Assembly: GCA_964408305.1 (NCBI GenBank)
Contig: CAYOYW010000005.1
Coordinates: 1-42,186 of the forward strand
Length of the DNA: 42,186 bases
DNA from: an uncultured Candidatus Saccharibacteria bacterium
Lineage (GTDB): Bacteria > Patescibacteriota > Minisyncoccia > Phycocordibacterales > UBA9973
Direction: 5' to 3'
The position numbers and the translations under genes are program-made. Positions within the stretch are counted from its first letter, which is position 1. Each line of letters begins with the position of its first letter. The notes beneath the pieces were generated by a model. It made no database searches. It saw only the letters and a program-made list of their open reading frames with translations, and was not told where the DNA came from. Of this stretch, positions 9,295-40,030 are shown piece after piece.

Positions 9295-9298
9295 TCTC

Positions 9299-9326
9299 TT
9301 GCAAATAAGAATGTAGTTCTTATTAT
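9299..9326 (+). promoter_or_regulatory. Promoter TTGCAA-N16-TATTAT (copy 2)
   Basis: atctcTTGCAAataagaatgtagttctTATTATacta. The first 16 nt are nearly identical to copy 1. Confidence 0.6.
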
Positions 9327-9357
9327 ACTAATATATTTATTTCATATACAAGTTTAC

Positions 9358-15022: not shown

Positions 15023-15682
15023 CTATCGCCTGAAGCTAAAATCTCAGGTGATTTTTTTGTTATGGATCATTCACATACAATTCAATACATTTACTTCCCA
15101 ACTACTTGTAGATGTAGCATAGAATGGAGCCGTACCTCAAGAGTATGGAGATAGATCTCATATAGTTTGCTTTCACTTTAGATATGATCAATTCAACACC
15201 CATCATATAGCATTGATACCTTGTTCTATATTCTTGAATCAAACCTTGTCACCACGATCATTATTACCTACATTCCCCCAGTTAAAAGGAGTCTTGAGAT
15301 GTTTACCTATTGACGTATCGGCGTATGTTATACATAGTAAAACTTCTGGATATACTTGGTGAATACGTGCAGTATGAATAAATGTACTCCATACAGCAGC
15401 TCCGCTTTGTCAGTAATCATTCAATAATTCTATAGCTCTTGCATCCCTACCTTTTCATTGCAAATCAGTGTATTTTTGAGATTTACCATTTTCATTCAGT
15501 AGCCATCGATCAGTAGGTTTTGTTGTTATTATTTCATCAGAAGGTAATCATATTTTGTCATTGTGCATCCAATCAGCCAGAACTGATCTACCAAATAGCA
15601 AAGTCACTACAATTCACACTATGAGAACTAGCTTTTGAGACGTTTTATTTATTGTTACTGGAACATATATTGTTTGTTTCAT
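15023..15682 (-). CDS. Membrane-anchored or secreted protein, possibly lysozyme-like, 219 aa
   Basis: All 220 minus-strand codons were checked, with no TAA or TAG. N-terminal TM LVLIVGIVVTLLF, then CITYADTSIGKHLKTPFNWGNVGNNDRGDKVGFKNIEQGINAIGWVL, which resembles glucosaminidase/transglycosylase-type motifs. The function is tentative. Confidence 0.65.
15027..15058 (+). terminator. Rho-independent terminator ending the early rightward arm
   Basis: cgcctga-agctaaaatc-tcaggtg followed by a T7 run. It overlaps the 3' end of the convergent minus-strand gene. Confidence 0.7.
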
Positions 15683-19469: not shown

Positions 19470-19471
19470 TT

Positions 19472-19478
19472 CTGGGGG
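19472..19478 (+). promoter_or_regulatory. CTGGGGG motif, 27 nt upstream of the portal ATG
   Basis: ttCTGGGGGtATTTAtataatacc... Confidence 0.4.
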
Positions 19479-19505
19479 TATTTATATAATACCAAAACAT
19501 CTAAT

Positions 19506-21476
19506 ATGACAACATCTCAACCTTGAGTAATGCCAGCAGTTCACAATCCAGCATCTAGCGTGGTAACACATCAACAACTTCCATTCAATGAATGAGATGC
19601 TCTAATGCAAATACAGAGCGAGTTCATGCAGTCGTATGCTTTCATGAGTCCAAAGCAAATCGATTGGCTAGAATACTTGAGAGCATACCATGACGGTAGA
19701 ATGCAAAAAGAAAAAGTGAAAATCAATCTTGCGTTTTCTAATATCAATGGATTGCAAGCTCTTGAAGCTATGGACCAACTACGTATCAAATACGTAGGAC
19801 AAAGCTACGAAGATTTTCCTAAGTGTGACAACTGGAATAAGCTAGCCAAGAACGCATATCAAAAAATGGGTATGACTCTGATTGATATCGAATGAGGTAC
19901 AAACAAGTACATGTACTGAGTGAAAGTAAAGCTCCTAGATATTGATGAGGACGGAGAAAGCATATCAGAGATTTTTGATACAAGACTCTTTTTCCCTGAT
20001 CCAAGTGGATGCTACCATGCTGAAAGATACAGATGGATGTGATTCAGAAAGTTCATGACAAAGGAGGATATGAAAGCTATGTGATTTGCTAACATAGGAC
20101 AATTCAGCAGATTGAAAGGTAATGATCTCCTTGAATGGAATCCATATCTTTGATTCGGACAATCACTTGAAATGGGAACAAACCTCCAGATGAACTTGTA
20201 CGCAGTGTATATGCACATGACAATCATTGGATGACACAAGTATATTATCTACACAAACGATGCGATGAACTGCATCGCTAAAGTTGTTAGATGTACTGAT
20301 CTCATACCGGCGTTGAAGAAAAGAACACTGGGAATCAAGTGAGAATTATGGCCAGTTGAACTAGACTTCTGGAGACCACAATATGGAAATCCAGTAGGTA
20401 TTTCAGTTATGGATCTAGTGTATGATAAACAGATAGCATTGTCTCAGGCAGTTAATCTACAAATGAAACGTGCAATCAGAATATCACTATGAGGACATAA
20501 GTTTTACGATATCAATATGATCAGAAACAGAAACGACATAGCAAAGATGGGAGTTGATCCAACTATTGTCGGAATAAATCTCAAGCAGTGACAAAGTCTA
20601 TCAAATGCAGTATACGAGCAACCAATCGCTGCACAAATGCCACCAGATAATTTCAACCTCCAAGATACGCTCCAATACCATACAAGACTATGAACTGGTA
20701 TGGATGCAAACCAACTAGGAGTTATGAACCAATGAGATCAAACTGCAACAGAGGTAAATAATCAGCAAGCAAATAGTAATGTGATACAATGATTCGGTAC
20801 AGTGCTTAACATTGAATCGGAAAAACTATTCCGGCTGAAGTGGTATCTCATGATGAAAAAGTCTCTCAAGTGAGTGCATAAAATAACAGTACTAAATACA
20901 CTCGGTGAAAAAGCCCTTGAATTCGGAAAGGATGACCTTATGATGGGCGAGATTGATGACGTTGTTATCAAGAGTGCATTAGACGAAATAGCCAAAGGTC
21001 AAAAGATGCTTAATGATATGCAACTAATGATACCTTTCGTATGATCTCTATGAGAATACTCTCAAAGAAAATACTATAGAGATATATGTGAACTCATTAC
21101 ATGAGACAAAGACAAAGCACTTGAATACGTCTATTATTCATCGGATGAGCTACAAGCTATGATCGATGTAAAACTCCTAAACAATGGAGAAAAACTTGGA
21201 CCAGTGACTGACATTATGACTGAAGACCATATTGCATACATAATGCGATACCAGCAAGCGAAGGATTCAGCATACAAAACACTTGCTATTCAGAACAGAA
21301 TGGAAGCTCTCAAAGAAAAAGAGAAAGCAATGAAACAACAACAAATAAATCAAGCACAAAATCCATGAGGACAAATGGCTTGATTACAAAGCCAGATGGC
21401 AGGTGCAATGGTCAACAAAGCTACTCAACAATGACAAGTAGCAGGTCAACCTACTGCAGCACCACAGGCAGCTTAG
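19506..21476 (+). CDS. Portal protein, 656 aa
   Basis: Called on size and its position directly after terL. The frame was verified line by line. TAG at 21474. Confidence 0.75.
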
Positions 21477-21501
21477 TTTTACAATCTTACTAACATATCA
21501 C

Positions 21502-22143
21502 ATGTCAACGTCTTGAAAAATCGTAGAAACACCATTCTTGAATAAGATGCAAGAGGAAACAGGTATCAACATGCTAGCTACCACAATCGAAGAACTAGGA
21601 GACAAGTTTCCAGTGAACTTCGCAGCTATGTCAAAGAAATCATTGCAACTAGCTATTGATGAACTAGAAAAAACATACCTAGAAAACATCCTTGCTATTA
21701 TCGGATCTCCTTTCAACCAATCATATCTTGCAAAAACAAGTGCTAATGCGGCAAAGGAAGTACAATCATTGAAACAACACAATGAGGTTATGCAAGAAGA
21801 AATTGAGCAAAAGAATAAAAAAACAGTTGAATTTGATGAAGCTATCAAAACTAAAAAAGCAGCTGAGAAAGCAGAAAGCAATGTATCAGTGAAAGACGTT
21901 CTCAAAAAAGAAATCCATGTACTTATGAAAGAGAAATCAAATCATATTACTGAGATTGAAAAGATTGAGGAACTTATCAAAGCTAATGAAGCTATCATTG
22001 AAAAACATCTTACTCAAATTGATGCTGATGCAACACAGTTGCAAGCTAATCTAGTTAATATAGATAATGGTCTTGAGTTCATGCCTTGGTATGAGAAAAA
22101 GATTTTAATCTTAAAAAAGTATCGTGATGCAGCAACAGACTAG
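21502..22143 (+). CDS. Coiled-coil protein, 213 aa
   Basis: Extends the track ORF 21538..22143 to the ATG at 21502. Only one in-frame TGA. Rich in E/K heptads. Confidence 0.65.
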
Positions 22144-22180
22144 TTTTTATCAAAAGAGAGCAGGTGAAACATGAAGCCCC

Positions 22181-22990
22181 ATGGATTCAGGTCCGAAGAA
22201 AATCACTGATGTGAACTTCGGACTGAACTTCTGAAGGTTATGAATGTACGGTGTCGCTCCTTTGAAAAAAGCAGGATGAATGCAAACTATTTGAATGTAC
22301 ACTCCGATAGATTTTATCATGGAGAAGTACTGAATCCTAAAAGACTCATACGATTGAAAAACTGAGAACCAGCAACGCAATAGTATGAAGTCTTATCTAG
22401 GAAAAGGTATCAAAGATCCTATTGAGATCCAAGCCATAGATGAATACTTTGCATATTTTTTGTGAGTATCAGAGCCAGGCGATTTCACTGCATATCTACA
22501 AGAGAAGGATTATGAACCAGTCGTTGCACAATCTGAGCAAGACAAACAACTTGCTATGCAAATGAAAACAGATGAAGAACAACGTGCAAAAGACAGGGAA
22601 GCTATCCAAAATACTGACATGACTTGAGTAGTTGCTGCAATGCAGGAACAAAACCAACTACTACGAGCATTGATCAAAGCTAACGGTCTTTTACCTTCTG
22701 TACCAGCTAATGTCGCTCCAGTCGAACAAGCCCAAGAGGCAAAGCAAGAAGTCATTGAAGCTCAATGAAGCTCAGAAGCCATCATTTGAGAAAGCATTCA
22801 GTGAACCATGATTGCAACCGATTGAAAAACAATCGAAGAAGAAATCCCCAAAGCAGCTCCAGTCGAACTCGTCATCCCTGACAAAGTCCTTGCCACTGAC
22901 AAGATCCAAGAAGACGCAACAGACGACTTCGAAGACTCGCTCATTGACGAAGACGAAAGGAAAGCAGCAGAAGAGAGTGACGACATCTAA
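22181..22990 (+). CDS. Hypothetical head-module protein with an acidic C-terminus, 269 aa
   Basis: The only long open code-25 frame here: MDSGPKKITDVNFGLNFGRLGMYGVAPL...DEDERKAAEESDDI. TAA at 22988. Confidence 0.65.
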
Positions 22991-23021
22991 TTGATTACCA
23001 GTTGAATCAGTATGGAGGAAA

Positions 23022-23399
23022 ATGGAAGACTACAATCAAAAGGTAGCAGCTGCAAACGTAAGTGATGAGGATGAGGAAATCGTACAAGACCTTGAAGACA
23101 TCATTATCAGAACTGATGAGGACAAGGCAATGTTCGAAACATATCTCAAGACATTACGTGCAAGTCCATGATGGAGAATGCTGATGTGATCTATCAAAAA
23201 AAGAATGAAAACACTAGACGATAACATTCACACAGATTTCTCTTGAAATCGCAAAACATTATCGTATAGCATAGATGAATTAGAAAAGGTCGAGTACAAT
23301 ATGTGGAAGGCAGTCCTTGAAATGCCAGACGACTTATTGGCTCAGATCGAAGTGATTGTCCAGAAGGTGCAATCGCAATCATTAACATATAAGGAATAA
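23022..23399 (+). CDS. Hypothetical protein, 125 aa
   Basis: ATG at 23022 to TAA at 23397. Confidence 0.55.
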
Positions 23400-23402
23400 A
23401 CT

Positions 23403-23446
23403 CTGGGGGAGTTTCTGTAAGTATTACAGAGAAGATCGCCCCCCAG
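23403..23446 (+). other. Long hairpin closed by CTGGGGG/CCCCCAG
   Basis: ctggggg...tctgta-agtat-tacaga...cccccag. Confidence 0.5.
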
Positions 23447-23462
23447 CTGTCTTCTCTCTACT

Positions 23463-23493
23463 ACTTATGGACACTCTCCATAAGTTTTTTTTT
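23463..23493 (+). terminator. Rho-independent terminator
   Basis: cttatgga-cactc-tccataag followed by a T9 run. Confidence 0.85.
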
Positions 23494-23527
23494 ACTTGCA
23501 GACAAGCTGCGTAATAATCTTTGTACT

Positions 23528-24325
23528 ATGCCAATACTAACTCCAGAACAGGAGAAAGCTCTTGAAGAGCAAATCCTAACATGAAAACCTGATCTAGTAG
23601 CACTAGAAAAGGGAACTACTCCTACCACTCAACAGGGTGATGAAGGAACTCCAGCTGCGAAACCAGCTGAACCAGTAACTCCTCCAGCGAAAGAGCCAGA
23701 GCCAAAGACTGAGGAAGTCAAGACTCCTGAAGCTACTAAAACTGAAGAGTGAAAACCTGATGAACCAGGGAATAAGAAAGAGACGGATTGGAAAACTAAG
23801 TACCACCGTGATATTACTATCAAAAATCAACAGCACAAAAAGGAAATCGAAGATGCCGTTCAAGCTGCACTCAAAGCAGCATGAGTTCAACCAAAGGATG
23901 TTAATCTCGAAGATTTCGATGAGGAACAAATCTGAATGGTAGAAAAAGTAGCATCGCAAGTAGTTGAAAAAGCAGGAGCGAAAACTCCAGCGTATGAACT
24001 TACTGATGATGACCTCAAAGAGCTTGATGCCTTCCTAGAGAAAAATCCACAAGCTGGAGATTCTGAAGAGAAGATAGATAAACTTATTCAGTTCAAAAAA
24101 GCACTACCCATTGCATCATTCTCAAAACTATATAAGAACCGACTTCAACCAGATGATCCAGAAACGCCTCAACAACCAGCAAGGACAGTGACAGCATGAC
24201 AAAGCATGGCAGGCACTGAACCAGAAAAAAAAGACGGCTGAGATAAGGGGGGCGACAGAAAGGAATACACTGACGAAGAGGTGAAGGCAAGTTTCATTAG
24301 AATGTCATGAATGGGGCAGGTGTAA
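23528..24325 (+). CDS. Putative scaffolding protein, 265 aa
   Basis: Lies immediately upstream of the capsid gene. It has a P/E/K/T-rich low-complexity segment and helical acidic regions. The track ORF 23936..24199 is in the same frame. Confidence 0.6.
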
Positions 24326-24355
24326 TATATTTACTTCTCTGTACTCAAACTACAC

Positions 24356-25315
24356 ATGACGTTTCCATTAAGTTCAATTAACATCAAAAATCCAAGTGCG
24401 GAACCATTTGTGTCATATATCAACAACAAGTTCTTGAAGCAATTCGAACCAAACTTGTTTTTTGCGAGATTCGCAGAACCACCAGTGGCACAAGAAGGTT
24501 ACAAATCAGTAACCTGGGTAAAAGCACAAAGATCTGAAGTAACTCCAGATCAAGCCAAGATGACTCCAGGTATCACACCTCCAGACTCTGGGCAAAAGTT
24601 AGATACCATTGAAGCTACGGCTAAACAATATGGTATGTATACAATTATCACTGACGAACTTGAATTGATTGCAAAGAACTTGCCATTGATGTCTCAAGTT
24701 GCTGAATTGATATCAAACAATATGGCACGTATCGTAGATCGTATCGTACAAGACGAAGTTCTTGATAATGCGGTTTATAGATTATATGCTGCAACTACTT
24801 CTGGATGAGTTCGTGCTGCCAACAGAGCTGCATTGACTGCTAACCACAAGTTATTTGCATTAGACTTTGTAAGAGCTAATACTCTTCTTCAAGAAAAGTA
24901 TGTTCCTTACAGAGAAGGTAACAGTTATATCGCTATTGTTCACCCAAGAGTGACTGATGGTCTTAAAACTGAAACTACTGTAGGTGCCTTCATTGACGTA
25001 CGTAAGTACTCTCAACCTGAAGATATTATCAGAGGTGAAATCGGTAAGCTCAATAACATCAGAATCGTAGAAAGTCCATTCGTTAAAGTTGTATCTAACG
25101 GTTCAATTAACGTATACCAAACTGCAGTATTCGGTTATCAAGCATACGGTATGGCTCAACTGGATAATATGAAATCTATCGTGAAACCATTCGGTTCAGG
25201 TGGAACAGAAGATCCATTGAATCAAAGAATGACTATCGGTGCTAAAACATTCTTCGCTGCTAAGATCCTTCAACAAGAAGCTATCCTAGTAATGGAATCT
25301 GCTGGTGCATTTTAG
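24356..25315 (+). CDS. Major capsid protein (HK97-fold type inferred), 319 aa
   Basis: Two track ORFs (24356..24808 and 24833..25315) are in one frame, joined through a single TGA at 24806. Sequence includes ...TEDPLNQRMTIGAKTFFAAKILQQEAILVMES. Position follows the scaffold gene. Confidence 0.85.
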
Positions 25316-25321
25316 TCAATA

Positions 25322-25347
25322 GGAGGTGGGGAGTAATCCCCATCTCC
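25322..25347 (+). terminator. Strong 11-bp hairpin with a GTAA (GNRA) loop just after the capsid gene (attenuator or mRNA stabiliser)
   Basis: ggaggtgggga-gtaa-tccccatctcc. No T-run follows. Confidence 0.5.
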
Positions 25348-25381
25348 ATTACACTTATTTACATCTCAACCCAACTCAACT

Positions 25382-25948
25382 ATGCTATTTCAATTCGAGG
25401 AAAGTACTCCTCTATCAGCCGTGACAATCACGAGTTCAGCATCTCCTGATGTTGTTATTCCTGCTGCGGTAACTTACAAATCAAGATGAATAGTTAATGT
25501 GGGAACTGGTATCACAACAGCATTCGCTCTTGTACCAGCATTCGCTGCATCAACTGCATACTTAAGAGGTCAATTCGTACAAAGTGGATGAATAATCTAC
25601 TCTGCTAAAGTTGATTTCACTTCAGGTGCTTCATTCTCAGCTTCAGATTGGAACGCATTCGGATCAAATGTAGTAGGTACAACTCAATATAGATGGATTG
25701 CTATCTATGTGAGAAAAAACTCTGCAGGTGCATTCGTAGCATTCTCTGAAGTAGGACCATTGACTGACTTTACAGCTGATGGTATCCAATATGCAAATGG
25801 GCCGTTTGATTCTCTTGTAGATCCAAACGCATGTCTAATATGAAGAGTTCTTGTATATGGAACAGGTGGTGCCGTAACAATCGGTACAACTAACCTTTCA
25901 GCTACAAACTCAGTAATAGTGGTAAATCCATCTGCAATCGGTGGGTAA
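25382..25948 (+). CDS. Putative capsid decoration or head fibre protein (by position only), 188 aa
   Basis: ATG at 25382 to TAA at 25946. Rich in Ala/Ser/Thr/Gly, beta-type sequence. Confidence 0.6.
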
Positions 25949-25955
25949 TCATACA

Positions 25956-25992
25956 CTGGGCGGAGTTTTCTCAAGGCGTTGACTCCGCCCAG
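25956..25992 (+). terminator. GC-rich 11-bp hairpin
   Basis: ctgggcggagt-(15 nt)-actccgcccag. No T-run follows. Confidence 0.45.
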
Positions 25993-26021
25993 ACATCATT
26001 ATCTGCTAACCTACATTTCCC

Positions 26022-26858
26022 ATGAACTGACAAGCTATCATTGATATGGCACTAGAAACAACAGGAACTAAAATAGCGGATCTCGGATGATATCCGTCTT
26101 TTTCTAAGTTTTTGGATGTCGTACATAAAATGTACTATGAGTGAATCAAAGAAATCAATGAGGACTTCCTAGATGATAGGATTTTTGTTGATTTTGTTGC
26201 ATTCCAAAATGCCTATGATCTTGGATTGCCGACATCTGTATCAGGATGAATAGACAAAATCCTCAGAGTAGGGGTAAAATACCAACTAGAATCATATCCA
26301 GCATGGGATGCTACGGCAACGTATAATAAATATGATCGTGTGATATATAATAACGGTGCATATATGGCTAAAACCAGCATTTCACCTAACGCTATTTTCC
26401 AATCAGCTTCATTTGTACAACTATATGACTGATATGTCGATTCAAGAGAAACAACACGCTATGAAAAGGACACTGATAGTCTAAATACACAGTCAGTTAT
26501 GAATAGCTATGAGTTCCAAACTCCGGTAGCTCCAAGACATATACTACAAAACAACACATTATATGTATTTCCATGGCCACAAAATGATATTGCCAAAGGT
26601 TTGAAAATAGATTATGTAAAATGACCAGCTGATATAGATTACAACACCGCTGAAGCTGACATACCAGTACCTAGACAATACCATTGGTATCTAGCAATGA
26701 CACTCAGAAGATTTGTATTTATGAAAGAGATGCGTGCTGAAGAAATAAATGCGAAAGTATACTCGGATGAGTTTTTCAACAAATGTATCAATGATATCAG
26801 AATGAGAAATTACGGTACAATCACTGAAACGAAAGACGATTTATCATATTATAGATAA
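26022..26858 (+). CDS. Putative head-tail connector/adaptor (by position only), 278 aa
   Basis: ATG at 26022 to TAA at 26856. Confidence 0.6.
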
Positions 26859-26860
26859 TC

Positions 26861-28369
26861 ATGCCATCTACACAGCTACCAAAGGCGTGGGCTTGAGTAT
26901 ATAAATGAGAAGCTGACAATGATTTTATAGCTGCGGATTACTACTACTACGCCAGTGAGAACATTGATACGCTATCTAATCCAAAATACTACAAGTTATC
27001 AGCAAAGCCAGTAACGGTATACGACAAAACTGCGGATGCAAATTGGGACTGATCGCTCACAATTTTTTCTAAATATGCCAAGATTATCAATATATCAAAT
27101 AACAACTGATCATGAGATGCTTATGTGTACAATAATGGAGTATACGCAACATCTATTCATAACGTAGCGACAATATACAAAGCCATTGAGTTCCAAAATA
27201 AGATTTTTTTCGCATATCTCAGAAGTGGATATGAGTTTGCAGTGCCATATACAATCCACTATGGATATATGGAAATAGATAGTACAACATGAAACATAAT
27301 GTCGGTATACAATCCAGTAGAATGGAGAGTTACTGATTTTTGAACGTATAATGTAGAGCTATATAATTTCAATGATGCTCTTCTAGTGTTTGCAGTATGA
27401 TATAAAATCCGAGCGGTACAGCGACCATTGCTAGTGAATCCAACTGGATGAATATATCCTTGTGATACAGTTACGCCAACGCTCTCATTGAGAAGACGTG
27501 ACAATGTAGTATGAATAGTACAGTATATGGAACAATTCAAGATATACACAACATACGGTGATAGAGATAATCCTCAAACATCATGTGCGTATATTTGTAA
27601 TCAAGCCGACATAGAGGCTGGTACTTTCACTCAAAAGATTGATTATCCATCAATAAACATCAAAGCGGTCATATCTAACTGATCTATTGATTATGCTATA
27701 TGTTCAGATGGTGATTATTTACTCAGTGGATGACAAAATCCAAAAAAAATATCATCAAAGCCATCATATACTGATTTCAGAAGAGCAAATACAACATTTT
27801 ATTGATCAAATTATGTCACTACAAACATAGATTGAGATTATAATGTAAGAGTGTATGGGAAAGAGGTAGCATGATTTCCAGACCAAATCACAAACTACGT
27901 TGAGTTCACAAATATCAAATCAATGACGTCTTGAAATGGTAAAATAATTGTCTCAGGGACATATAATTGAATCAAGTGAGTATTCTATGTACAATATGAT
28001 CCAACTGACGTGCTAGAGAAAGTGGATACATGAAGTCTTACATATATGAAGTTCTATTGAAATCTTGCAAGCACACTAAAAACTATGGATCAATTCACTC
28101 TTGGCCACAAGCTACCAGTGTGAACGTCAATAGCAATGCAAGTATCACTAGATGAAGGTCCATTCACAACCATCAAGACATTCTCATGAGCGGATTATGA
28201 ATGAAAGACAAGATCTTTTCTATTCGCTGATCAGATGGCGTTGACATCAAAAGAATGGTGATGGATGCAACTGAAAATAGTACTCACATCTAGTTCAGAT
28301 AATAGAGTATTGACTCCATGGATTATGGATATACTCATGCTTTATTCAGATATTATCAAATGACGTTAA
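26861..28369 (+). CDS. Putative tail structural protein, 502 aa
   Basis: ATG at 26861 to TAA at 28367, with about 40 in-frame TGA codons. No family recognised. Confidence 0.65.
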
Positions 28370-28611
28370 CAACTACAATAGATTGATTCAAGATACCGAA
28401 TCCACCTCAAGTAGAAATCAATCCAGTCTTCAAAGACGAGGATTGATTGAACGCTCCTAGAAAAGAAGGTAGATTCCAAATCAGAAACAATCTTGCATCG
28501 TATGGTAAACCAATCAATACAACAATCACTCCTACAAAATATATAGTGGTAGAGATAAATTGAAAAAGATATCAGGTTCCAGTAGTGCCTACAACCGAAA
28601 AGCTAACATAA
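28360..28611 (+). CDS. Hypothetical protein, 83 aa
   Basis: Overlaps the upstream gene by 10 nt. TAA at 28609. Confidence 0.45.
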
Positions 28612-28659
28612 TCATATTGCTTTTCGCAAAGTAAAATATACTACTACGAGTAATATCTT

Positions 28660-28667
28660 GCTGGGGG
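28660..28667 (+). promoter_or_regulatory. GCTGGGGG motif, 26 nt upstream of the ATG at 28694
   Basis: ttGCTGGGGGagcATTTAatc. Confidence 0.4.
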
Positions 28668-28693
28668 AGCATTTAATCATTTTAATCGAAACT

Positions 28694-31408
28694 ATGGCAA
28701 GAACCCCAGAACAAATCGCAGCGACAAAGGCAGTAGTAGAAAAAAGAAGAGCAGAAAATACTGCAAAAAATGCTTTGCCTACTACACAAGTTGTTCAATG
28801 ATGACCTCAGCAAACTGCAGAGGCAGTTCAAGCAGCACAGGCAAAACAAGCTAATGCACCAGTAGGATGAACTCCTCCAGCGGTGCCAACTCCATGAGCT
28901 ACGCCGGCAAATCCTACTCCACCAGCAAATCCAACACAAGCACCTAATCAGTCAGTTGCTTTGCCAAAAATAGGTGCTACTGCTAACATAAATCCTACAA
29001 CAGGAGCTATGACAAATGCAGATGGTACTCCATACGTTCCTGGTCCTAACAGTACAATGAACCCAAAGACTGAAGACCAATCAATGCTATTCGGAGATGC
29101 TGCAGTTGCCAAAAATCTTGAAGATCCAAAGTTCATACAAAATAGAGATGCAAGTATTATCAAAGAGCTAAGTGCCAAATGACAATACGGCGATATGAAT
29201 GATGCAGAACTCAAGAAAAACATTGAAGCTGACCTAGTGAGAAGAGGTGCTGATATCAAAGATCCTAGAATATCACAAACAATAGATAGAGTTGCTTCAG
29301 GGATAAGATGAGTACAACCTATGAGAACTGCGGATGATTACTACAATATCCTAGCACAAGGTTGAACTCTACCAAACCAAGACATATCAAACCCAAATGC
29401 ACAATATGCTATGTCTACTTTCAAAAAAGTGCAAAACATAGCTACAAAAACTCCTCAACAAATATCGTCTGATCTTGCATCAGGTAATTTGCTTATTTGA
29501 GGTAATCTATACAACAAACTAGTTGCTGCATGATACTGACCTAAATTGGAAGAGGCAAAGAAATACAAAAACCTTCAGTTTAGACAAGACGTAAACAACT
29601 ATCTTACATCAGGTACAGATGTTGATCCAGACAAACCGCTTGGAGAACAAAAAACATCATTTCCTGACCATCCTAATTTTGAGGAATCGCTTTCTCAAGA
29701 GTTTTCTACAAAATCTCCAAATTATGTAGATATGTTTAGAGAAAGTATAGCTAATAACCAAGAACTCAATGATGCTAAAACAGCTGCAAGATCTACATTG
29801 GATGCCATCAATGAAAAAAGAAGACTAATCAGTAATTTGTCAGCAGATATAAAAGCTCAAATAATCGCATTAGGAGGTACAATAAGTGACTGATACCTTG
29901 CTCTTTTGGCACAAAATAAATCAAAACCTATCGTGAGAGAATTGGAAGGATTACAAGATCAATATAATTCAGAAATGGCACTTGTTAGTGACCTAAAAGA
30001 TACAGCAAAGACTGAGTTCGAACTTAAGATGAAACAATACGGAGAAGATAGAGAAGTTGCATTGGAAAATATGAAATTCGAAAGAGATTACAAAAAACAA
30101 CTCAATATCATGGGGATCCAGGATCAATACGCTCAACAAGCAGAGGAAAGAGCGTTCGGAAGAGATCTGAAAAAGATGGATATCCAAGACCAATACAGTC
30201 AAGCTGCAGAAGAAAGACAATTCGGAAGACAAATCAAGCTCGGAGATATCCAATACGACAGAGATCTCAACAAGATACAAATTGGATTCGAACAAGATAT
30301 CAAGAAACTCCAAATGTCTCAAAACTTCGATCTTAACAAGATGGATAAACAAGCATATATCAACCAACAGCAAGCGAAGTATGAATATGATCTTAAAAAC
30401 CAAGCTACTATGAATAGTAACCTTGGTATGGTAGATGTTAGCCAAATAGAACAAGCAAGAGAAAAGTATGGATACGCTCCATGATGGGATAATCCACAAA
30501 TTGCAAAACTATGTCTACCAGACGGTTCAAACGCTGGTCAATGTGCTAAATATGTGAATGATCTCTATGCTGCAGCATGAGCTGGAAGGCCATTCGGTTG
30601 AGCAGATCAAACAATCAAGGGGAAAATCGCAGTTACACAATCTGATAAACGAGGATCTACAAAGCCAGTTATCGGATGATCAGTTGTGTCTGATTTTGGA
30701 TTACAAGATCCTGATACAAAACAAAATTATGGTCACGTTGAGCAAATCATTGCTATCAAACCAGATGGTACATTGGTAGTATCAGGTTCTAACTTTACAA
30801 ACGACAAAAACAGTCCTAAATATAACAAAGCATATACAAGAGAAATCTTGCCATGAGATCCAACAGTGAAATGATATACAAAAGCTCCATGAGCTGAAAC
30901 ATGAATCCAACATGCTCAGTTGACTGATAAAAACTTCACTCAATTCAACCAAGCTACTCAAAACTTTAGAAACAATCCAGTTGTTCAAAGCTATGAAAAA
31001 GCTATTACATCAAGTAGAAATCTCCTTTCATCATTGAATGATGCAAGTGGACCTGGTGATGTAGCAGGTATATTTGACTTCATGAAAACATTGGATCCTA
31101 CGTCTACAGTTAGAGAAGGTGAGTTCGCTCTTGCAGCAAAAAGTGCATGATTGAAATGAGATATCCAAAACCTTTACAATAGAGTTGTAAATGGTCAAAG
31201 ACTTACAGCTGATCAAAGAAGAGAGTTCTGACAACTTGCAAAAACGTATATTAGAAACCAAGGTAAGTCATACGATAGAGTCTATGATGATATGGTAAGA
31301 GCTTATGAGGCAGGATGAATTGATAAATACTACTTGCCTACAAGTGCATCAAAAGAACTAGATGATATATGGGGAGATACAGACCTCAAAGATCCATACG
31401 AAGAATAA
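28694..31408 (+). CDS. Large virion-associated protein with a CHAP peptidoglycan-hydrolase domain, 904 aa
   Basis: Five track ORFs lie in one frame, verified line by line. CHAP signature LPDGSNAGQCAKYVNDLY (Cys at 30542), ...NYGHVEQIIAI (His at 30734), ...VSGSN. Tandem IQDQY-AEER-FGR repeats near 30115-30260. Confidence 0.85.
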
Positions 31409-31428
31409 TTTATCTATTTCAGGACAAG

Positions 31429-34400
31429 ATGTTCAACATATTCGATACTATTGATGAGCTAGCAGCTCAAAACAGAAAAAAGAAACAAATAGCTAGTGGA
31501 CAACAGTACGCTAGTTTTGTCAATAATGTCGAGCCAACTACTCCATCTCCGAAAAAGATGGATTTTTCTCTTATTCCATGATATAACACTCCATCAGTTC
31601 CCACATCGATCACAGGTGGGAAAAGTATCGCATATACAGACAATCCATGAACGGTTGCACAAATAGAGCAGAACACTGTGAACCAAGTAAAAAGTATACT
31701 ATTCTCAAACGCTGAGATACTTAAACTCAGAGAACTCAAAAAACAATGAGTTTCTAAACAAGCTGCATACGAGCAAATCGCAAAAGATAGAGCGACTGAG
31801 TCATCACAAAACCCACAAACTCAATGAGGTATAAAACGTGGACTTACTCCAGATCAAGTAGATCCATCAGAAGCTGCATATAATCCAGTATGATATGGAT
31901 TCGAAAAGCTAGACAACGCTGCACAAGGAATACCTACTATTGATGTAAGAGGTAATGTATCGCAAGAGATAAATGACAAGGTAGCAAAATTGCCACAATC
32001 AGAAATTGATAGAAAGACAAAAAAGTTCAATGATACACGATGGATACAAAAACTATATGGTAATGTAAACAACTATATCAGAGAGACGTCAAAATCATAT
32101 ATGGAATGATTGAGAGAAGATTTTGCTACTCCTCTCAACATTTTTGCTAATGCTCCAGCAAGTGCCATAAAAACGGCAACTGCAACTGCAAGATGAGTGA
32201 CAAATCCACTAGATACGATAAAAGGTATATATACGCTCTTTGCTACCCCAGAAGGTAAGCAAGCTCTTACGGATAGATATTGAAGTATGGACAATATATT
32301 GAAAACAATGGAAACTGATCCAGTATGATTGGCAAGTGATGTACTTACACTACTTGAGTGAGGTGCGAACCTTACAAAACTATGAGCAAAATGAACTTCA
32401 CTAGTTGCGAAAGCTGCAGGTGCAAGTGATATTGCTAAGAGTGCGGAAAGGGTAGCAACGACTGCATGAGATATTGCACACACTGCAGGCCAAGCAGCAG
32501 ATCTATGAGTAAGTACTATGGTACCAGCATGATTTGATGTTGCGAAAGGTGCATTCAAAGGTAATTCGGCATTTGACAAGGCAGCTAGATTTACGATTGA
32601 TGCGGCAAAAGCTCCTACGGCTCCATTAGAAACTGCAGGTAAAGTCGCAAAAGCTATTGTGCCAAAAGGATTTGATGTATTTAATCCAAAAGTAAAAGCA
32701 CAATGATCAAAACCTGATTTTGCTGACAGAGTAGCTGCAGCTCATTTTGGTGTTGATGCTGAAAGTGTTAATATAGCTAGACAAAACCCTGAGATATTCA
32801 AACAAATTGATGAAGGTAAAATAACAAAGAAGACAGTGATTGATGATTTAAGATCTCTTGTTAGCGATAAAAAATGACAAAAATCTGAACTATGAGCATT
32901 ATATGAAGATGTATACAAAGCTCCTGAAAAGTTCAACAGTGTAGAGATGGCGAAAGATATAGCTAGCAAACTACAAGAGGAATGAATTGAGATGACGGAT
33001 GGAAAAGTTACATGATATGATCCATCAAAGACGACACTCACTGATACAGAGTTTTCAGCACTCAAAAGCAAGTATAACAATACACTTTCAAACCTTACAT
33101 CAAAACCACGTGAATTATCGGTAGAGGAAGTACACAATATCAGAAAAGACATATACAACACATCATACAATGATGGTGTTAGATCTAAAAAAGCAAAAGG
33201 TGTGGATATCATATCTAACCTTATCAATGAAAAATATCTCCATACAGTTCCATGATTCAAAGAACTAGACACAGAGTTCGGAGATGTAGCTAGTATCGCT
33301 AGAGAAGTATCAAAGATAATTACAAACAAAGACGGAGAGTTCAAAGGTACATTGAAAGCACTCCTAGGAGAAAAACAAGCTCCTAGATTAGAACTACTTG
33401 AAAAATACGTTCCTGGTATCACTCAAACACTAGAAACAATAAAAGCACACGATGATTTCGTAAGAACAAGAGATACTCACAAAGTATGATTATATGGCAA
33501 AATAGTGAAATGAGCTACTAGCACATGAGTAGGCTTTGCTCTTGGTGGCCCAGTATGAGCATTCATAGGATGAGTAGGTTGAGCATTACTCGATCAATTT
33601 TTGTCAAATCCAGATTTATTGAAAAAATATATCAAAAATATAGACGGTGGTAAAACTCTTGCCAAATTGGAAGCTGGAAAAGAACTTAGTGCGGTTGAGC
33701 AGGCAAAAGTTAAAATTGCAGCAGCAAAGGTACAATGAGAAGCCGATAGAAAGGTAAAAATGGAAGCTCAAAGAGTTGAAGCTGAAGCCAAGGCAAAAAT
33801 GGAGGAAGAGAAAAAGATTATCCAAAGTAAGAAAACTGAAGCGTTTAATAAAATCAAGAATGATCCAGAATATGTGAAAAGAGCAGAAGCTGGCCACAGA
33901 GTAGATAAGCCACTTGTATGAGATATTACAAGAGAATGAAAAGTTACTGCAGTGAAAGAAACTGGTGGTCAATATAATCATTTCAGAGTACAAATTGACG
34001 GAAAATCTGAATGGATGAAACCTGAAAATGTAGGTGGTGTTTACGGTAAAAAAACAGTTGACACAAAACCTCCAGTAGAAGATTTTGACGAAACTATGAG
34101 AAAAACAGTTGAATCAGCTACTACAGAAAAAGATCCATTATCAACATTTGCTGAAGGATGAAAAAGAGAATACTATGTCAACTCATTGAGTGAATACGGC
34201 GTTGATGTAGGTAAAATAACAGATATGTGAGATAGACAAAAAATAGCTGACATGATCAATGCTAGAAGTACAGATAAGCAATACGAACTTTTCAAAGAAA
34301 TTATTGAAAAACACGGTGATGATGCCTCAAAAGAAATGTTCCAAAGTGCTAGAATTGCATGACAAACTATAAGTAATCAAGAAGCTACAAAAACTGTACT

Positions 34401-35826
34401 GAAATACTTTTCTCCAGAGGAAGTATCAGTACAATTTGTCAAATCTCTTACTACTCCAGAGTGACAAGAGGCACGAGGATCATACCACAATAAAATCATA
34501 AAGTTCGTAGACAACCCTGATAAAAATACCCCAACACACGAAGTGTTGCATGCTTACTTTGATATGTTCACAGATCCGTCAAGAAAGGTGGATATTTTAG
34601 AAACAGTAAAAAGACAAGCTCAAGTAGATAATCCAGGATCTAAAATGACAAATGTGGATGCAGAAGAATGGCTAGCAGATAATTTTGTGCAATATGTAAG
34701 AGGTGCTGAAACATTCACCGGTAAAATCAAAAAATACTTCGAGAATATGTGGAATACAATGAAAAATATATTCGGACAAGGAGACAAGATAAGAAACCTA
34801 TATAACGATATCATTGATAAAAAAAGAAGTAAATGATCGAATAAATGAATAGCTATGTTTCAAGAAAAAGACAATCATCTCTACGAAGAAGCAAGGAAGT
34901 ATAAGAGTGCAGAGGAGTTTATAAGCAATTCCGATGTGGTTTACCATTGAAGCAGGGCTAGTATAGGAAATGCACAACTCACTCCATGATTAAAAGGTTC
35001 TAGGGGTGGTGGTATATATACTACAAAAGATGTTCAACAGGCAAGTAATTACTGAGATATAAATACTAGATATATTACTTCTAATGCACGTAAGTTTGAT
35101 TTTGATTCTATGAGGAAGAAAGATATTATTGATACTATACAATCATGATTGGAAAAGAACAATATTGCAGTAAATAGAGATTGAGATTTGCTCGTTACGA
35201 AATACTGAAGACTAGATTTCGAGTATTGAAAAGATAAATATGCTCTAAACTCTTTATTGATGGATTTGAAAAATGACTGAATCAGTCAAGAAAGGTTCTT
35301 TACAGATATGTGATACGATTTAGTAAATCTATGAGATTGAGAAAAACAGATAGTCGTATATAATCCTAGTGTCTTAAAAACTAAAGACCAACTCCGCCAA
35401 ATCCGAGAGGAAGCAAATAAAAATACTAGAGAATATGCTTGAACGCACCAAATAGATGAGAATACTTCTTCTTCGATTGTGGATATATCTAATAATACTA
35501 TCGATTCATTTGTTAGCGACTTCAAATCGAAATATTGATACCCAGCTCTAAAGAATAAAGAAATAGCTAAGATGAAAGAGTTAATGTCTAATAAATCTGA
35601 AGAAGTAACTATATATAGAGCATCTCCCAAGAATGAGCTTAATCCTGGTGACTGGGTTACAATAGATAAGGCATATGCACAAGACATAAAAAAACAGAAT
35701 GGATGAAGAGTATATAAATATAAGGTCAAAGCAAAAGACTTATACTACCCAACAACCAAGGAATGATTTGACGAATTACCGTCACTAGCAAAACGAAGTT
35801 CATTTAGCTATAACCCTAAAAAATAG
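31429..35826 (+). CDS. Giant polyvalent virion protein, 1465 aa, with a zincin metallopeptidase motif and a PARP-like ADP-ribosyltransferase motif
   Basis: All codons 31429-35826 were checked. TAG at 35824. HEVLH at 34537-34551 with AEEWLADNF 37 residues later (ImmA/IrrE-like pattern). VVYHGSRASIGNAQLTPGLKGSRGGGIYTTKDVQQASNYG from 34936 and GEKQIVVYNPSVL at 35341 form an H-Y-E pattern. Glycine-zipper GVGFALGGPVGAFIGGVGGALL. Confidence 0.85.
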
Positions 35827-35872
35827 TATTGAAAACACCCAATAAAAACTTATATACGAACTAATAATAAAA

Positions 35873-35881
35873 GCTGGGGGG
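35873..35881 (+). promoter_or_regulatory. GCTGGGGGG motif, 27 nt upstream of the ATG at 35909
   Basis: aaaaGCTGGGGGGcttATTTActcc. Confidence 0.4.
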
Positions 35882-35908
35882 CTTATTTACTCCTAGCTTT
35901 TTTGCAAT

Positions 35909-36262
35909 ATGGACACTCCAAGAGAATACGCTAGTATCCTAGCACAGGATACAATACAGGCATCTACACGTAAGGTAGTATACACTGTACCAACTGGGAT
36001 GAATGCACATATCGCCAGGATATTCTGGACGAATACTGACTGAAACGCTCATACATTCAGTTTTGGTGTAGCAAAAGCATGAGCAGCTGATGCCGTAAAA
36101 CAATACCTATACTCAAATCTACCTCTATCAGGGAATGATTGTTTCGTACTTGCCGCAGATCTAGGACTTGAGTCTTGAGATCAGCTTTTTGTTAATGGAG
36201 ATAGTTCACTTATAGCGGTTAATGTTCATTGATCTGAGTTCAGATATAAATGAGAAAAATAA
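35909..36262 (+). CDS. Hypothetical tail-module protein, 117 aa
   Basis: ATG at 35909 to TAA at 36260. Confidence 0.55.
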
Positions 36263-36285
36263 TTTTATATAGCAATAAATCGTAG

Positions 36286-37599
36286 ATGGCTCCTCACTGA
36301 TATACCTCTGAAGGTTCAACAGTAATCACAAAACAAGTACAGACAGCAAACTCTGATCCAGGAAGTCTAAGTATGATTTTTTCTGATACATCAAACCTAG
36401 CAAAAATATACGCTCTAGTAGCAGGTAGTAGAATAACACTAGATAGGAACGTAAACGGTAGAATGACTATAGCAGTAGATTTGACTGGATTATCTAGTTC
36501 TGATATTACTAATTTTCAAGCAGCAGTTTCAGCTAATACAGACGTTGCAGCTAATACTGTAGCAAGACATACACACGCTAACAAAACAACTCTTGATAAG
36601 TTCTCAGAGCCATGAGGAGTATTGAACTTTAATGGTGTTCCAGTGAACTTCGAAAATCCTTTCCTAGGACAATGACAAGATGGAGCAGTTACAATATCAG
36701 TAGATACAACTCTTACTAGAGATATGTACTATGACACGCTCGTAGTAAATGCCTGAGTAAGATTGAATGCTGCATGATATCGTATTTTTGCAAAAACTAG
36801 TGTAACAGTAAATGGTATAATTAGTAACAACTGATTCAACGCATCTTGATCAACAGGATGATTGTGAGCTAGTGCTGGTACATTGAAATGATGACTTGAC
36901 GGTAAAAATGGTAGTATCTGAGCTACTGGTGCTATACCAGCGGTTGCAGGTACTGCATGATTAACAGGTACTGCATCAGCAAATAGTCTATGAGTTGCAG
37001 GTACTGCATGAGGTGCTGGATGAGATACTGGAAATTATGGTCCAAATAGTATTGCATCAGGTGGTGCATCTTGAGCTGGATGAGCAAGAACAGTTGCCAT
37101 AAATCTACCAAAATCTATCTATCAATTCATGGCATTCGTAGATGCCAATTATAGTGTTAACAACGTAACAGCATACTACTCTTCTTCAGCATGAGGTGGA
37201 TGAGGTGGATGAGGTGCAGCATATTGATCTCCAGCTACTGGTTGAACTGGTGGATGAGGTGGATGATGATGAGGTATCGTATTCATCTATACTCCTAGCT
37301 TGACTATATGAGCTACATGAGTGATCGAAGCGAATTGATGAGCTGGTTGAAACGGAACGGCTTGAACTGGCGGTACTGGATGACAGACTGCAGGTTGAGG
37401 TGGATGAGGTTCTGGATGAGCAGGATGAGTTGTTATCTTGATATATAAAGCTATTAGTAATGCTTGAGTTGTTAGAGCGTTATGATGAGCTGCATGAGCA
37501 GGATGATCTCCATTGCAATTCGGTGGTACATGAGCTACTGCATGAGCAGGTTGAGTATCATGAAATACATGAAATACTTACACTTACACATATATCTAA
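36286..37599 (+). CDS. Glycine-rich tail fibre/spike-like protein, 437 aa
   Basis: Every line was checked. There are about 48 in-frame TGA codons by hand count. Sequence includes SSSAGGGGGGGGAAYGSPATGGTGGGGGGGGGIVFIYTP and VIEANGGAGGNGTAGTGGTGG. Confidence 0.8.
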
Positions 37600-37850
37600 T
37601 GATAGAAAAAGCCAAACAATTAGTCACAATACAGGTGGATCGAGATATTCCAGAAGAGCGATATTGGAGAAAGCTCTATATGGAGTATTTCGAACATCTA
37701 TGAATGGAGTACGTAACAAAATCCATTGTCCATGTGTTTGACTGGATTGATAAAAGAGTAAATAACAACTATTGAAAACAAGCTGAAGCGTTCGCAGAAA
37801 TAGTGATACGTTTCCAGTGAAATCCTATTTTAGATGCTATCCCAAACTAA
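37599..37850 (+). CDS. Hypothetical protein, possibly a fibre assembly factor (by position only), 83 aa
   Basis: TAATG stop/start overlap with the upstream gene. TAA at 37848. Confidence 0.5.
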
Positions 37851-37853
37851 CAA

Positions 37854-39641
37854 ATGTGAGCTACAGTACACGGTTATACGTGAAAGAATCAATCACCAAC
37901 TATGGTTGCATGGGGGAATATCACAGGTACGCTTGCGAATCAAGCCGACCTAGTTGCAGCACTCGCTACCAAAGCGAATGATTCTACGGTTGTTCACAAA
38001 GCTGGTAACGAAACTATCACAGGCGTAAAAACATTCAATGATAGTACTATTGTTATGCAAAATGTAGCAGGTACTTTTACGGTAACACTCACTAATACAG
38101 TTACTGCGAATAGAGTACTTACATTGCCAAATGTTACTGATGTTCTAATTAGTAGATCATCTTCTGATACTGTGACTAATAAAACATTTTCTAATAATAC
38201 GAAACTTGCAGGATCTACTCAAACTACAAGTACATCAGTAACAACAACATCTAATCCAGTTCAATACGTAGATGCTACCGCTTGAAATATAACTATTACA
38301 TTGCCAACTATTGCAAACTGACAGTGGTATAGGATCTATAAAATAGATGCAACTGCAAATACCGTAACAGTACAAAGAGCTTGAACTGATACAATAAATG
38401 GTGGTACTAATGTGGTAATATCTAAACAATACGCATGATATGAATGTCTTTGATGATGAGGTACTAACTGGGTAGCTGAATATATGCAACCTACAGAAAC
38501 TGCATGATGAACTCCATGAGGTTCAAGTACACAACTCCAATACAACAATGCTGGAGTTTTTTGAGGTATTACATGAGCAACTACAAATGGTACTACAGTT
38601 ACTCTTACATCTCCAATAATCACGACTTCTATAACAACAGGTTCAGCAACATTATCTGTGTTTGATGCGACTGCTACTACAGTGACTGCGTTCCAAGCTG
38701 CAACAACTATGACAATAGGTTGAACTCCTACAACAGCTATCACACATAACTATTCTACAAATGCTACTGCTGCAGCAACTACAAAAACAGTTAATCTTGG
38801 AACTTGAGGTGCAGCATCTTCTACAACAAATATCAATATATGATCAGCAAATGGTGGTACTACTACAATCAATTCACTACTAATTTCATTGTGAGGTATT
38901 ACATGAGCAACTACTACAGGTACTATTGAATTGTGAAACGCTTCAGATACTACATTATCAAGAAGTGCCGCAGGTAGATTAGCGGTAGAATGAGTTAATG
39001 TGGTTACTATATCAAGTGCTGATACATTGACTAACAAAACAATGACAGCAAGTACTAATGTTATCGGTTGAGTTACAATGACTCTTGGTACAGATGCTAC
39101 ATGAGATATTTATTACAGAAGTGCCGGATGAGTACTAACAAGATTGCCTATATGATCTGGTACACAAGTTCTTTGAGTTTCGGCAGGTATACCAGCGTGG
39201 ACAACTCCTTCTGGATGAGTTTGAGATCACGGTTGTTACTTAACACAAACAACAGGTACTACAGGTGCATTCGGTGCATATACTACATTATGATTTGATA
39301 CTGAATCGTATGATACTGATGGTTACCATGATAATGTCACAAACAACAGTAGAATTACAATTCCAGCAAGTAGATGAGGTACATATATAATCAGTGGATG
39401 AGCTGGTCAAAGTGTTAACTTCAGAGCGTTGAAACTAATCAAAAACTGAACTACTCAGTTAACAGTACAAGGTGCAGTAGGTTCTTCATGATCTCCATCA
39501 GGTACAGATGCTGGTACATTCAACTTATCATGGACTGGTAGATTGGTAGTTACAGACTTTGTTGAACTACAACTATATACAACGTCTAATACTGTAACAT
39601 CTTCTACATACACATACTTCTCTGCTCAACAAATCGCATAA
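37854..39641 (+). CDS. Tail fibre protein, 595 aa
   Basis: WGNITGTLANQADLVAALATKANDSTVVHKAGNETITGVKTF, a repeated GGITGATT motif, and LSRSAAGRLAVEG. Verified line by line. TAA at 39639. An alternative start is at 37902. Confidence 0.85.
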
Positions 39642-39688
39642 TGGATTTGATATTCATGTGAAAATATCTATACAACAATCAATAACAA

Positions 39689-39696
39689 GCTGGGGG
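39689..39696 (+). promoter_or_regulatory. GCTGGGGG motif, 22 nt upstream of the ATG at 39719
   Basis: caaGCTGGGGGcTTTTAgtt. Confidence 0.4.
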
Positions 39697-39718
39697 CTTT
39701 TAGTTATGATACACTGCG

Positions 39719-40009
39719 ATGCTAGAAACCCTTATATTGCCTACTCTCAAAGAATACTGACCTTTCATGTGAATGGTTATATTAGCAGTAATATACTTCG
39801 TATATGAGCTTAGAAAAAAGGATTTATATATAATTGATATCACCAACAAGTTCATCAATATCGCTCAGGATAACATAAAAGTAAACACAGAAATCAGTGT
39901 TACTATCAAAAATCTTAGCGAAATGATGAGGACACAAACTATGCTTATGCAAGATAGTCAACAAAAACTCACTGAGGTATTGACAGAAGTGAAGTTTATG
40001 AGAAAGTAG
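39719..40009 (+). CDS. Small membrane protein with a coiled-coil tail (holin or lysis-regulator candidate), 96 aa
   Basis: The TM MVILAVIYFVY is followed by a helical region. TAG at 40007. Confidence 0.55.
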
Positions 40010-40030
40010 TTTTTATCATTTCCAACGCCT

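Follow-up and report, generated by a model that had tools for sequence, protein, structure and literature searches.

Some phage late promoters lack a -35 box and depend on an activator or a sigma factor, as do the T4 late promoters (TATAAATA) and the four Ogr-activated promoters of P2. Cluster A mycobacteriophages carry stoperators, which are bound by an identified repressor in lysogens. In Cluster K mycobacteriophages, the start-associated sequence (SAS), as described in PMC3203893, is a 13-bp element that lies 3-7 bp from the start codon and has a Shine-Dalgarno-like core; it marks many non-structural genes and is conserved across subclusters. The present analysis concerns another short repeat, CTGGGGG, in contig CAYOYW010000005.1, which is a phage contig of about 42 kb that uses genetic code 25, with TGA read as glycine. 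The whole stretch analysed (42,186 nucleotides, nt) is referred to as the window. Judged by its placement, CTGGGGG is a candidate cis element specific to this phage and tied to the starts of late modules, and it probably marks late expression units.

The motif occurs nine times, on the plus strand at 2891, 9371, 19472, 23403, 28661, 35874 and 39690 and on the minus strand at 15275-15281 and 23440-23446. These positions agree with those of the preliminary description, save that the first minus-strand copy had been placed one base off, at 15274-15280. Its rough estimate that fewer than one copy should arise by chance is borne out by exact counting, because 100 dinucleotide-preserving shuffles give a mean of 0.45 and a maximum of 3, and none reaches nine. 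The longer form GCTGGGGG is observed six times against 0.09 expected and is matched in 0/100 shuffles. The prefix CT stands before 9 of the 17 runs of five or more G's on both strands, and the signal is therefore the 7-mer and not G-runs as such. Six of the nine copies fall within the 3885 nt of intergenic sequence (9.2% of the contig). The copies and the structures that contain them are as follows.

19472..19478, plus strand: CTGGGGG, 2 nt past the TerL stop; TTTA at 19481-19484, 25 nt before the portal ATG at 19506.
28660..28667, plus strand: GCTGGGGG in an 82-nt gap; TTTA at 28672-28675; ATG at 28694 of a virion protein of 904 amino acids.
35869..35901, plus strand: hairpin AAAAGCUGGGGG / CUCCUAGCUUUU, then a U-rich stretch (-18.1 kcal/mol, z -3.4, 1/200 shuffles as good); it follows the gene for a 1485-amino-acid protein and ends 7 nt before ATG 35909, the first gene of the fibre module.
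35873-35881, plus strand: 5' arm of that hairpin, GCTGGGGGG, with TTTA at 35886-35889 in the loop.
39689..39696, plus strand: GCTGGGGG in a 77-nt gap; TTTA at 39699-39702; ATG at 39719.
23403..23494, plus strand: long hairpin with CTGGGGG (23403-23409) at its 5' end (-40.4 kcal/mol, z -7.3, 0/200 shuffles as good).
23463-23485 plus T9, plus strand: stem and T-run at the 3' end of the same hairpin, a classic intrinsic terminator at the close of the portal module.
23440-23446, minus strand: the copy whose complement is the C-run in the centre of the 23403-23494 hairpin.
2890..2897, plus strand: coding copy GCT GGG GGG (Ala-Gly-Gly) in the gene for a 144-amino-acid protein (2677-3111); no TTTA box after it.
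9370..9377, plus strand: coding copy in codons 5-7 of a RecT-like gene (ATG 9358); no TTTA box after it.
15275..15281, minus strand: coding copy C TGG GGG, sense for the leftward gene 15023-15682.

Four copies (19472, 28661, 35874 and 39690) are linked to a TTTA box and open the portal, virion-protein, fibre and lysis modules, so that they stand upstream of late (structural or lysis) operons; three of the four lie within gaps of 77-82 nt. The distance from the last G of the motif to the ATG is 27 nt for the portal gene (19506), 26 nt at 28694, 28 nt at 35909 (27 nt when a sixth G is counted) and 22 nt at 39719, in agreement with the distances first reported. Each linked copy is followed by 1-4 bases (1-3 in the preliminary description) and then (A/T)TTTA, with spacers of 2, 4, 5 and 2 nt to the TTTA itself. 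Within 16 nt 5' of the gene-start boxes of the window, both TGGGGG and CTGGGG are found at four places, where 0.05-0.07 would be expected, and no one-mismatch variant of CTGGGGG occurs within 10 nt upstream of any TTTA. By our own arithmetic, with about 37 boxes and a tolerance of 7 nt, a random site would fall at a box with p of about 0.006, and four of seven sites would do so with p of about 5e-8. The strand bias of 7:2 is not significant alone, and it is uninformative because almost all genes share the plus strand. A characterization of the motif as strictly sense-oriented holds in a formal way for eight of the nine copies and carries little weight. Two of the three coding copies are built from the GGG codon used twice running.

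The 5' arms of terminator-type hairpins, with a GC-rich stem and a U-run, contain two of the nine copies (23403 and 35874), the second of which is also linked to a box. No significant hairpin is found in the leaders at 19472, 28661 and 39690 (z -0.35, -0.91 and -1.24). The copy at 23440-23446 had been regarded as the pairing partner of the copy at 23403. An inverted repeat does exist there, but the minimum-energy fold of 23403-23494 pairs the 23403 G-run with a downstream CUCUCC and leaves the C-run in the apical loop. Strong hairpins also occur at 25328-25353 and 25962-25998 (-22 and -27 kcal/mol), directly 3' of the capsid gene and of the next gene. The hairpin at 25962-25998 starts with CTGGGCGG, and relatives have G-run hairpin terminators at the same place. 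In six related loci (L059, L060, L066, L072, L074 and L096), G5-run hairpins stand just past the capsid gene and a T-rich tract merges into the next box.

The (A/T)TTTA sequence had been treated as half of the late motif. It is instead a general gene-start box: TTTA starts 29-16 nt before the ATG in 37 of the 44 genes of our gene list, with a mode of -23, and these include early genes and genes that overlap the preceding gene at their start. For automatic gene calls the box is present at 39/50 genes, compared with 2/50 and 1/50 in two control windows further upstream. The leader between -22 and -3 is poor in G (8.5% versus 19.1% genome-wide) while C is at 18.7% versus 16.8%, and no Shine-Dalgarno motif, GGAG included, is present in the leaders of the window. 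Related phage contigs were retrieved by capsid-protein alignment from IMG/VR and metagenomes (loci L040-L050 and L059-L097). Every TGA-recoded related locus of at least 4 kb (30 loci) has the box at 43-100% of its genes, in comparison with 0-17% in seven standard-code relatives. When 298 genes from 32 recoded loci are pooled, TTTA starts peak at -23 (63 occurrences), with 252 at positions -26 to -20, and the G content drops to 4-11% over the stretch from -25 to -4 versus a background of 19%.

Gracilibacteria and Absconditabacteria read TGA as glycine and largely lack Shine-Dalgarno pairing. To our knowledge, almost nothing is known about gene expression in these lineages and their phages. Some Gracilibacteria genomes carry the same box. 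Among the Gracilibacteria loci examined (L120-L222), 80 pooled loci show a TTTA peak of 75 at -23 versus about 22 per position, and the box is found at 10 of 18 genes in the oral HOT-871 genome (2-3 in controls) and at 8 of 17 in GN02-872 (1 in the control). The cellular box is restricted to some, low-GC, Gracilibacteria lineages. It is absent from the genes of two relatives of the organism represented by bin contig C27 (0/17 and 0/15), and the recoded contigs of the bin show no TTTA peak. The co-binned Gracilibacterium is therefore probably not the host of the phage. In the ribosomal-protein cluster, the box stands before 16 of 23 genes in HOT-871 and 19 of 25 in GN02-872, compared with 3-4 in control windows. 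Because such clusters are generally co-transcribed in bacteria, a box before internal genes favours a translation-type signal over a promoter for each gene.

The box may be a replacement for the Shine-Dalgarno signal. At the 16S rRNA 3' end of two Gracilibacteria genomes (L218 2960-2985; L217 1636-1655) the sequence is GGACTATCTCCTTA, in which UCUCC replaces CCUCC. A survey (PMC10783764) lists two Absconditabacteria as Shine-Dalgarno-scarce and without CCUCC. The literature searched, which included passages of PMC9297842, PMC6851277 and PMC10746230, yielded no description of either the TTTA box or CTGGGGG.

What CTGGGGG adds to this box is most easily approached from the early region, where ordinary promoters can be recognized upstream of the same box.

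9296..9339, plus strand: early sigma-70-type promoter, CTCTTGCAA, 16 nt, TATTAT; the TTTA box of the RecT gene (9336) lies 9 nt past the end of the -10 hexamer.
2236-2266, plus strand: second early sigma-70-type promoter, before the gene for a 76-amino-acid protein that starts at 2299.

Both are clear promoters in which TTGCAA is followed after 16 nt by TATACT (2239) or TATTAT (9299), and by eye the -10 hexamer of the 2239 promoter ends 11 nt before its box. The extended -35 box CTCTTGCAA has intergenic copies at 2236 (2236-2266), 9296 (9296-9326), 41633 (41633-41640) and 41709 (41709-41716), and a variant stands at 16036 (16036-16066; CCCTTGCA / CCCTTGCAA). No copy lies in the intergenic gaps of the late region when the list of copies is read against our gene map, and the stretch from 19 to 39 kb shows no enrichment of sigma-70-like sites (78 versus 71 expected). 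The late modules therefore need a different signal. In the early promoters the -10 hexamer ends 9 and 11 nt before the box, and transcripts should therefore start 1-5 nt upstream of it. If this geometry carries over, a late transcript with a box would start in or beside the G-run. The box and its G-poor leader look like features selected in RNA, which also requires that the transcript start lie 5' of the box, where CTGGGGG is found.

We tentatively prefer, while holding it to be somewhat short of probable, the reading in which late transcription units are tagged by CTGGGGG at a promoter-proximal position or in the initiation region. The late promoters would have no -35 box, and the transcript would start in or beside the G-run; we infer both this start and the involvement of a phage factor, together with which the host RNA polymerase would read CTGGGGG. 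In that case the 5' end of the late mRNA would consist of the TTTA box with the G-poor leader behind it. The G-run at 35874 doubles as the 5' arm of the terminator hairpin of the upstream unit. In a transcript begun inside this hairpin the structure could not form, termination would not occur and the box would be left free. Promoters of the sigma-54 and T7 types do not fit the motif, given that the TGG-to-TTTA spacing varies between 8 and 11 nt and no long conserved block is present. Transcription of the N4 type was likewise set aside; the phage has a capsid protein of the N4-gp56 family, but its genes include no detected N4-like polymerase. A review of N4 offers no promoter sequence for comparison.

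Several observations weigh against this reading. The distance from the -10 hexamer to the box is only loosely clustered, with 12 of 21 promoter-like family sites at 6-14 nt, and is not clearly non-uniform. The 50-nt flanks of the CTGGGGG copies contain no upstream -10 or -35 consensus: none of the 21 pairs of flanks is above chance, and the best is equalled by 17/500 shuffles. PHROGs and Pfam searches of the window identify no RNA polymerase, sigma factor or known late activator, in a gene set that includes many small genes without assignment. At 19472 the copy comes 2 nt after the TerL stop, and no terminator precedes it. Both CTGGGGG and a box are lacking at the scaffold/capsid unit (ATG 23528), from which the highest expression would be expected. 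The three coding copies and the hairpin copy at 23403 are left unexplained by a promoter model. Positional conservation in related genomes, the lack of which counts against a late-gene element by the preliminary description's own criterion, is not observed: plus-strand CTGGGGG is present in 0/30 recoded related loci of at least 4 kb, a weak test in that the closest of them has 52% capsid-protein identity. No analogous motif next to the box was found in 18 of these 30 loci.

A G-rich sequence does appear next to a box in one relative. In locus L042 (about 4600-4645), TGAGGGGC lies 3 nt 5' of the TTTA box of the portal gene, and it is the sole G-rich box-adjacent sequence at a homologous position. 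This 'TGAGGGGCTAATTTA' before the L042 portal gene is the only hint of a related element. Enrichment of 7-mers across the genomes of relatives mostly reflects coding bias, and its sole G-rich hit, in L088, comes from a repeat cluster, not a gene-start motif. In five Gracilibacteria genomes that use the box (1.0-1.3 Mb), TGGGGG-N0-6-TTTA occurs 1, 1, 8, 2 and 5 times compared with 0, 1, 2, 3 and 3 for a reversed control, and on visual inspection an ATG stands at the box distance from none of the 17 sites. The absence from the 30 recoded loci and from Gracilibacteria gene starts therefore indicates that CTGGGGG is neither a host signal nor a family-wide phage signal, as far as can be judged from sampled relatives that are distant (at most 52% capsid-protein identity).

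The main rival to a transcription-start tag is an element of the mRNA leader, in which CUGGGGG acts just 5' of the UUUA box to tune the translation or stability of late mRNA. It might be bound by an RNA-binding protein of the phage or host, be a processing site, or pair with the C-rich apical loop GCCCCCCAGC (23437-23446) of the hairpin at the 3' end of the portal unit. We regard this reading as somewhat unlikely, even though it accommodates the coding copies. Eight of the nine copies, that of the leftward gene included, read as sense in a gene or leader that is transcribed. The ninth, the complement, lies in the loop of a minimum-energy hairpin; its match is 10 nt long with GCUGGGGGGC (35873-35882) and 7-9 nt long with the remaining leaders. 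The box and the G-poor leader also resemble RNA-level features, and the presence of the box inside Gracilibacteria ribosomal-protein operons favours a signal of the translation type, with which a neighbouring RNA element could be coupled. However, no RNA-binding protein was identified among the genes of the window, the three leaders without hairpins have no significant structure, and the element is not conserved in the sampled relatives. Pairing with the loop depends on a single complementary copy, and an alternative local fold places that C-run in a stem. A further reading, which we consider unlikely, makes the TTTA box an undescribed Shine-Dalgarno substitute that recruits ribosomes at the RNA level in part of the Gracilibacteria and in code-25 phages, with CUGGGGG as a late leader module that this phage has invented before it. 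CUGGGGG would then be the first bases of the transcript, or a dock that receives a phage protein or the C-rich loop in the 23403-23485 hairpin, and would switch late translation or mRNA stability.

The hairpins at 35869-35901 and 23403-23485 raise the question of whether CTGGGGG is simply the G-rich 5' arm of a terminator, such as this phage group would usually employ, or the remnant of one, with a U-tract that runs into the next TTTA box and so accounts for its position. G5-run hairpins are common after the capsid gene in relatives, and another hairpin of the window starts with CTGGGCGG. A by-product of termination is nonetheless improbable, because no significant hairpin accompanies the copies at 19472, 28661 and 39690 and because the motif lies 5' of the box with a 2-5-nt spacer at all four linked sites, while a 3' arm is present only at 35874. 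Moreover, a stem does not need the exact CT-prefixed 7-mer (9/17 G-runs), and the G-run arms of relatives bear other prefixes. A site that acts in DNA, such as a Chi-like recombination signal, a strand-specific nick site or a packaging or methylation target, would suit the over-representation, the 7:2 bias and the coding copies. Genes for RecT, an exonuclease and a C-5 cytosine methyltransferase are present in the phage, and E. coli Chi is a sequence that we take to differ from GCTGGGGG by one base. We find such a site hard to credit, since fusion to the box at four sites (about 5e-8) would not be expected of it, the strand bias is uninformative given the nearly uniform gene orientation, and the bin has no CTGGGGG copy in its three largest code-25 contigs (C23, C27 and C35) and only rare copies in its 40%-GC contigs. 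Chance or composition is the least credible source of the motif and can be given almost no weight. Markov models of orders 3-4 do expect 1.2-2.2 copies per strand, and GGG codons cluster in runs, as in the G10 tract at 224-233. Yet these high-order models were trained on the motif copies themselves, 0/100 shuffles reach nine copies, and neither the CT prefix nor the fusion to the box is explained.

We rate CTGGGGG as a putative phage-specific late regulatory motif. The first proposal is supported in part, and its general idea of a late cis element is reasonable but unproven. The motif is non-random, four copies have a fixed placement at the first gene of late modules, and two copies are arms of terminator hairpins.

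The assignment of the contig to code 25 rests on its coding content. Long frames under table 11 cover 13% of the window, compared with 90% when TGA is a sense codon. TGA was compared as glycine and as tryptophan in three conserved enzymes, and the profile scores are better with glycine in all three: 202.6 versus 160.4 bits for RtcB, 131.8 versus 96.8 bits for the C-5 DNA methylase and 110.3 versus 94.9 bits for the head domain of the CCA/poly(A) polymerase. TGA is also the commonest of the 995 glycine codons (506/995), and GGG is rare (39/995). The scores of the three enzymes and the prevalence of TGA among glycine codons therefore identify a code-25 phage. Genes were assigned by PHROGs and Pfam searches, and the main ones are arranged as follows.

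45-14900: methyltransferase, replication initiator, RtcB, CCA-adding enzyme, HNH endonuclease, RecT, exonuclease and other genes.
15023-15682, minus strand: leftward gene.
17046: TerS.
17928: TerL.
19506, plus strand: ATG of the portal gene.
24356: capsid protein of the N4-gp56 type.
28694 and 31369: giant virion proteins of 904 and 1485 amino acids.
36286 and 37854: glycine-rich fibres.
39719-40982: lysis module, opened by a membrane protein of 96 amino acids, with a CHAP endolysin at 40479-40982.

The CHAP domain of the 904-amino-acid virion protein is weak (27.0 bits with a cut-off of 26), and the 1485-amino-acid protein has no sequence match in the PDB. In the fibre-like glycine-rich protein at 36286-37599, TGA accounts for 48 of 437 codons and there are long poly-glycine stretches. 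No credible integrase is found among the genes of the window, where one weak integrase-family match has E 3.7e-5, and no repressor was found. An RtcB RNA ligase and a CCA-adding enzyme are encoded at 3652-4914 and 7008-8375 in a phage with no tRNA gene found in the window; together they look like a tRNA-repair module that perhaps counters anticodon nucleases. The G10 tract at 224-233, which consists of three GGG codons in a row and flanking bases, lies in the C-5 DNA methyltransferase gene and is a possible slippage or phase-variation tract. The 76-amino-acid gene at 2299-2529 on the plus strand, with its promoter and box, is overlooked when genes are called simply as the longest open reading frames. 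The long minus-strand frame at 15682-16293 is probably spurious, and the overlapping plus-strand gene 16097-16501 has a sigma-70-like promoter and a TTTA box.

The window is the entire contig C5 of a 914-kb bin of 77 contigs (G000, contigs C1-C77). This bin is chimeric. It includes contigs at about 40% GC that use the standard code and come from a small-genome bacterium, many contaminant contigs of 53-76% GC, the phage and TGA-recoded Gracilibacteria fragments. The recoded contigs C23 and C27 are cellular; C23 carries an integrase and a Zot-family (filamentous-phage assembly) gene, and the ribonuclease HII-QueH fusion protein of C27 has many relatives named 'Candidatus Gracilibacteria'. No code-25 genome was seen in the bin's own phylum: five candidate genomes have no TGA inside RpoB, and, the window's own genome aside, 0/90 among the matches listed have more than one TGA. 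Portal-based searches of viral, metagenome and genome contigs gave no usable relative, and a portal search of 401 genomes of this phylum matched three, of which the two besides the window's own are weak. Protein-database relatives reach 66% and 65% identity for the portal and 86% for the capsid protein. A TerL search found 23 viral-contig loci at no more than 44% identity and named phages at no more than 39%. Over positions 19400-39399 of the window, contigs from a second sample are identical, with zero variation. A search for expression data listed no RNA run in which the phage occurs.

The window can be read as a compact regulatory map in three layers, with early promoters of the sigma-70 type, a universal TTTA box some 23 nt ahead of starts and a phage-specific, G-rich tag at the four late modules. 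If the tag is a late switch, it would offer a handle on a phage factor that reprograms a CPR (candidate phyla radiation) host, and it would lead to better calling of genes and operons in recoded phages. The TTTA box, common to the phage and the host lineage, may be the more general result.

CTGGGGG shares one or more properties with each of several known classes of element. Like a Shine-Dalgarno sequence, it is a purine-rich block 5' of start codons, but this assignment was rejected because it lies 22-28 nt from the ATG instead of 5-13 and because the 16S tail of the likely host group has UCUCC, not CCUCC. As in intrinsic (Rho-independent) terminators, two copies form the 5' arms of GC-rich hairpins with U-runs, whereas three of the four box-linked copies have no significant hairpin. 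Like Cluster A stoperators (mentioned in PMC3203893), the copies are asymmetric sites spread across the genome, oriented with transcription and often intergenic; unlike those phages, the window has no repressor or credible integrase that was found. The likeness to the Cluster K SAS, as PMC3203893 describes it, is that of a short asymmetric repeat in one orientation upstream of some phage start codons and missing from the host. CTGGGGG is nevertheless only 7-8 bp long, stands 22-28 nt from the ATG, precedes four late module-leading genes and was seen in one genome only, and it was not classed as an SAS on the grounds of length, distance and conservation.

A further comparison is with the late promoters of T4 and P2. 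In contrast to these, the searches turned up no cognate sigma factor or activator for CTGGGGG, and the sampled relatives do not conserve the motif. It is also G-rich and abuts a general gene-start box, and thus resembles neither a -10 element nor an upstream activator site. What it has in common with the T4 and P2 promoters is that a short, phage-specific motif precedes each of a small number of late operons and that the early genes in the genome are served by ordinary promoters of the sigma-70 type.

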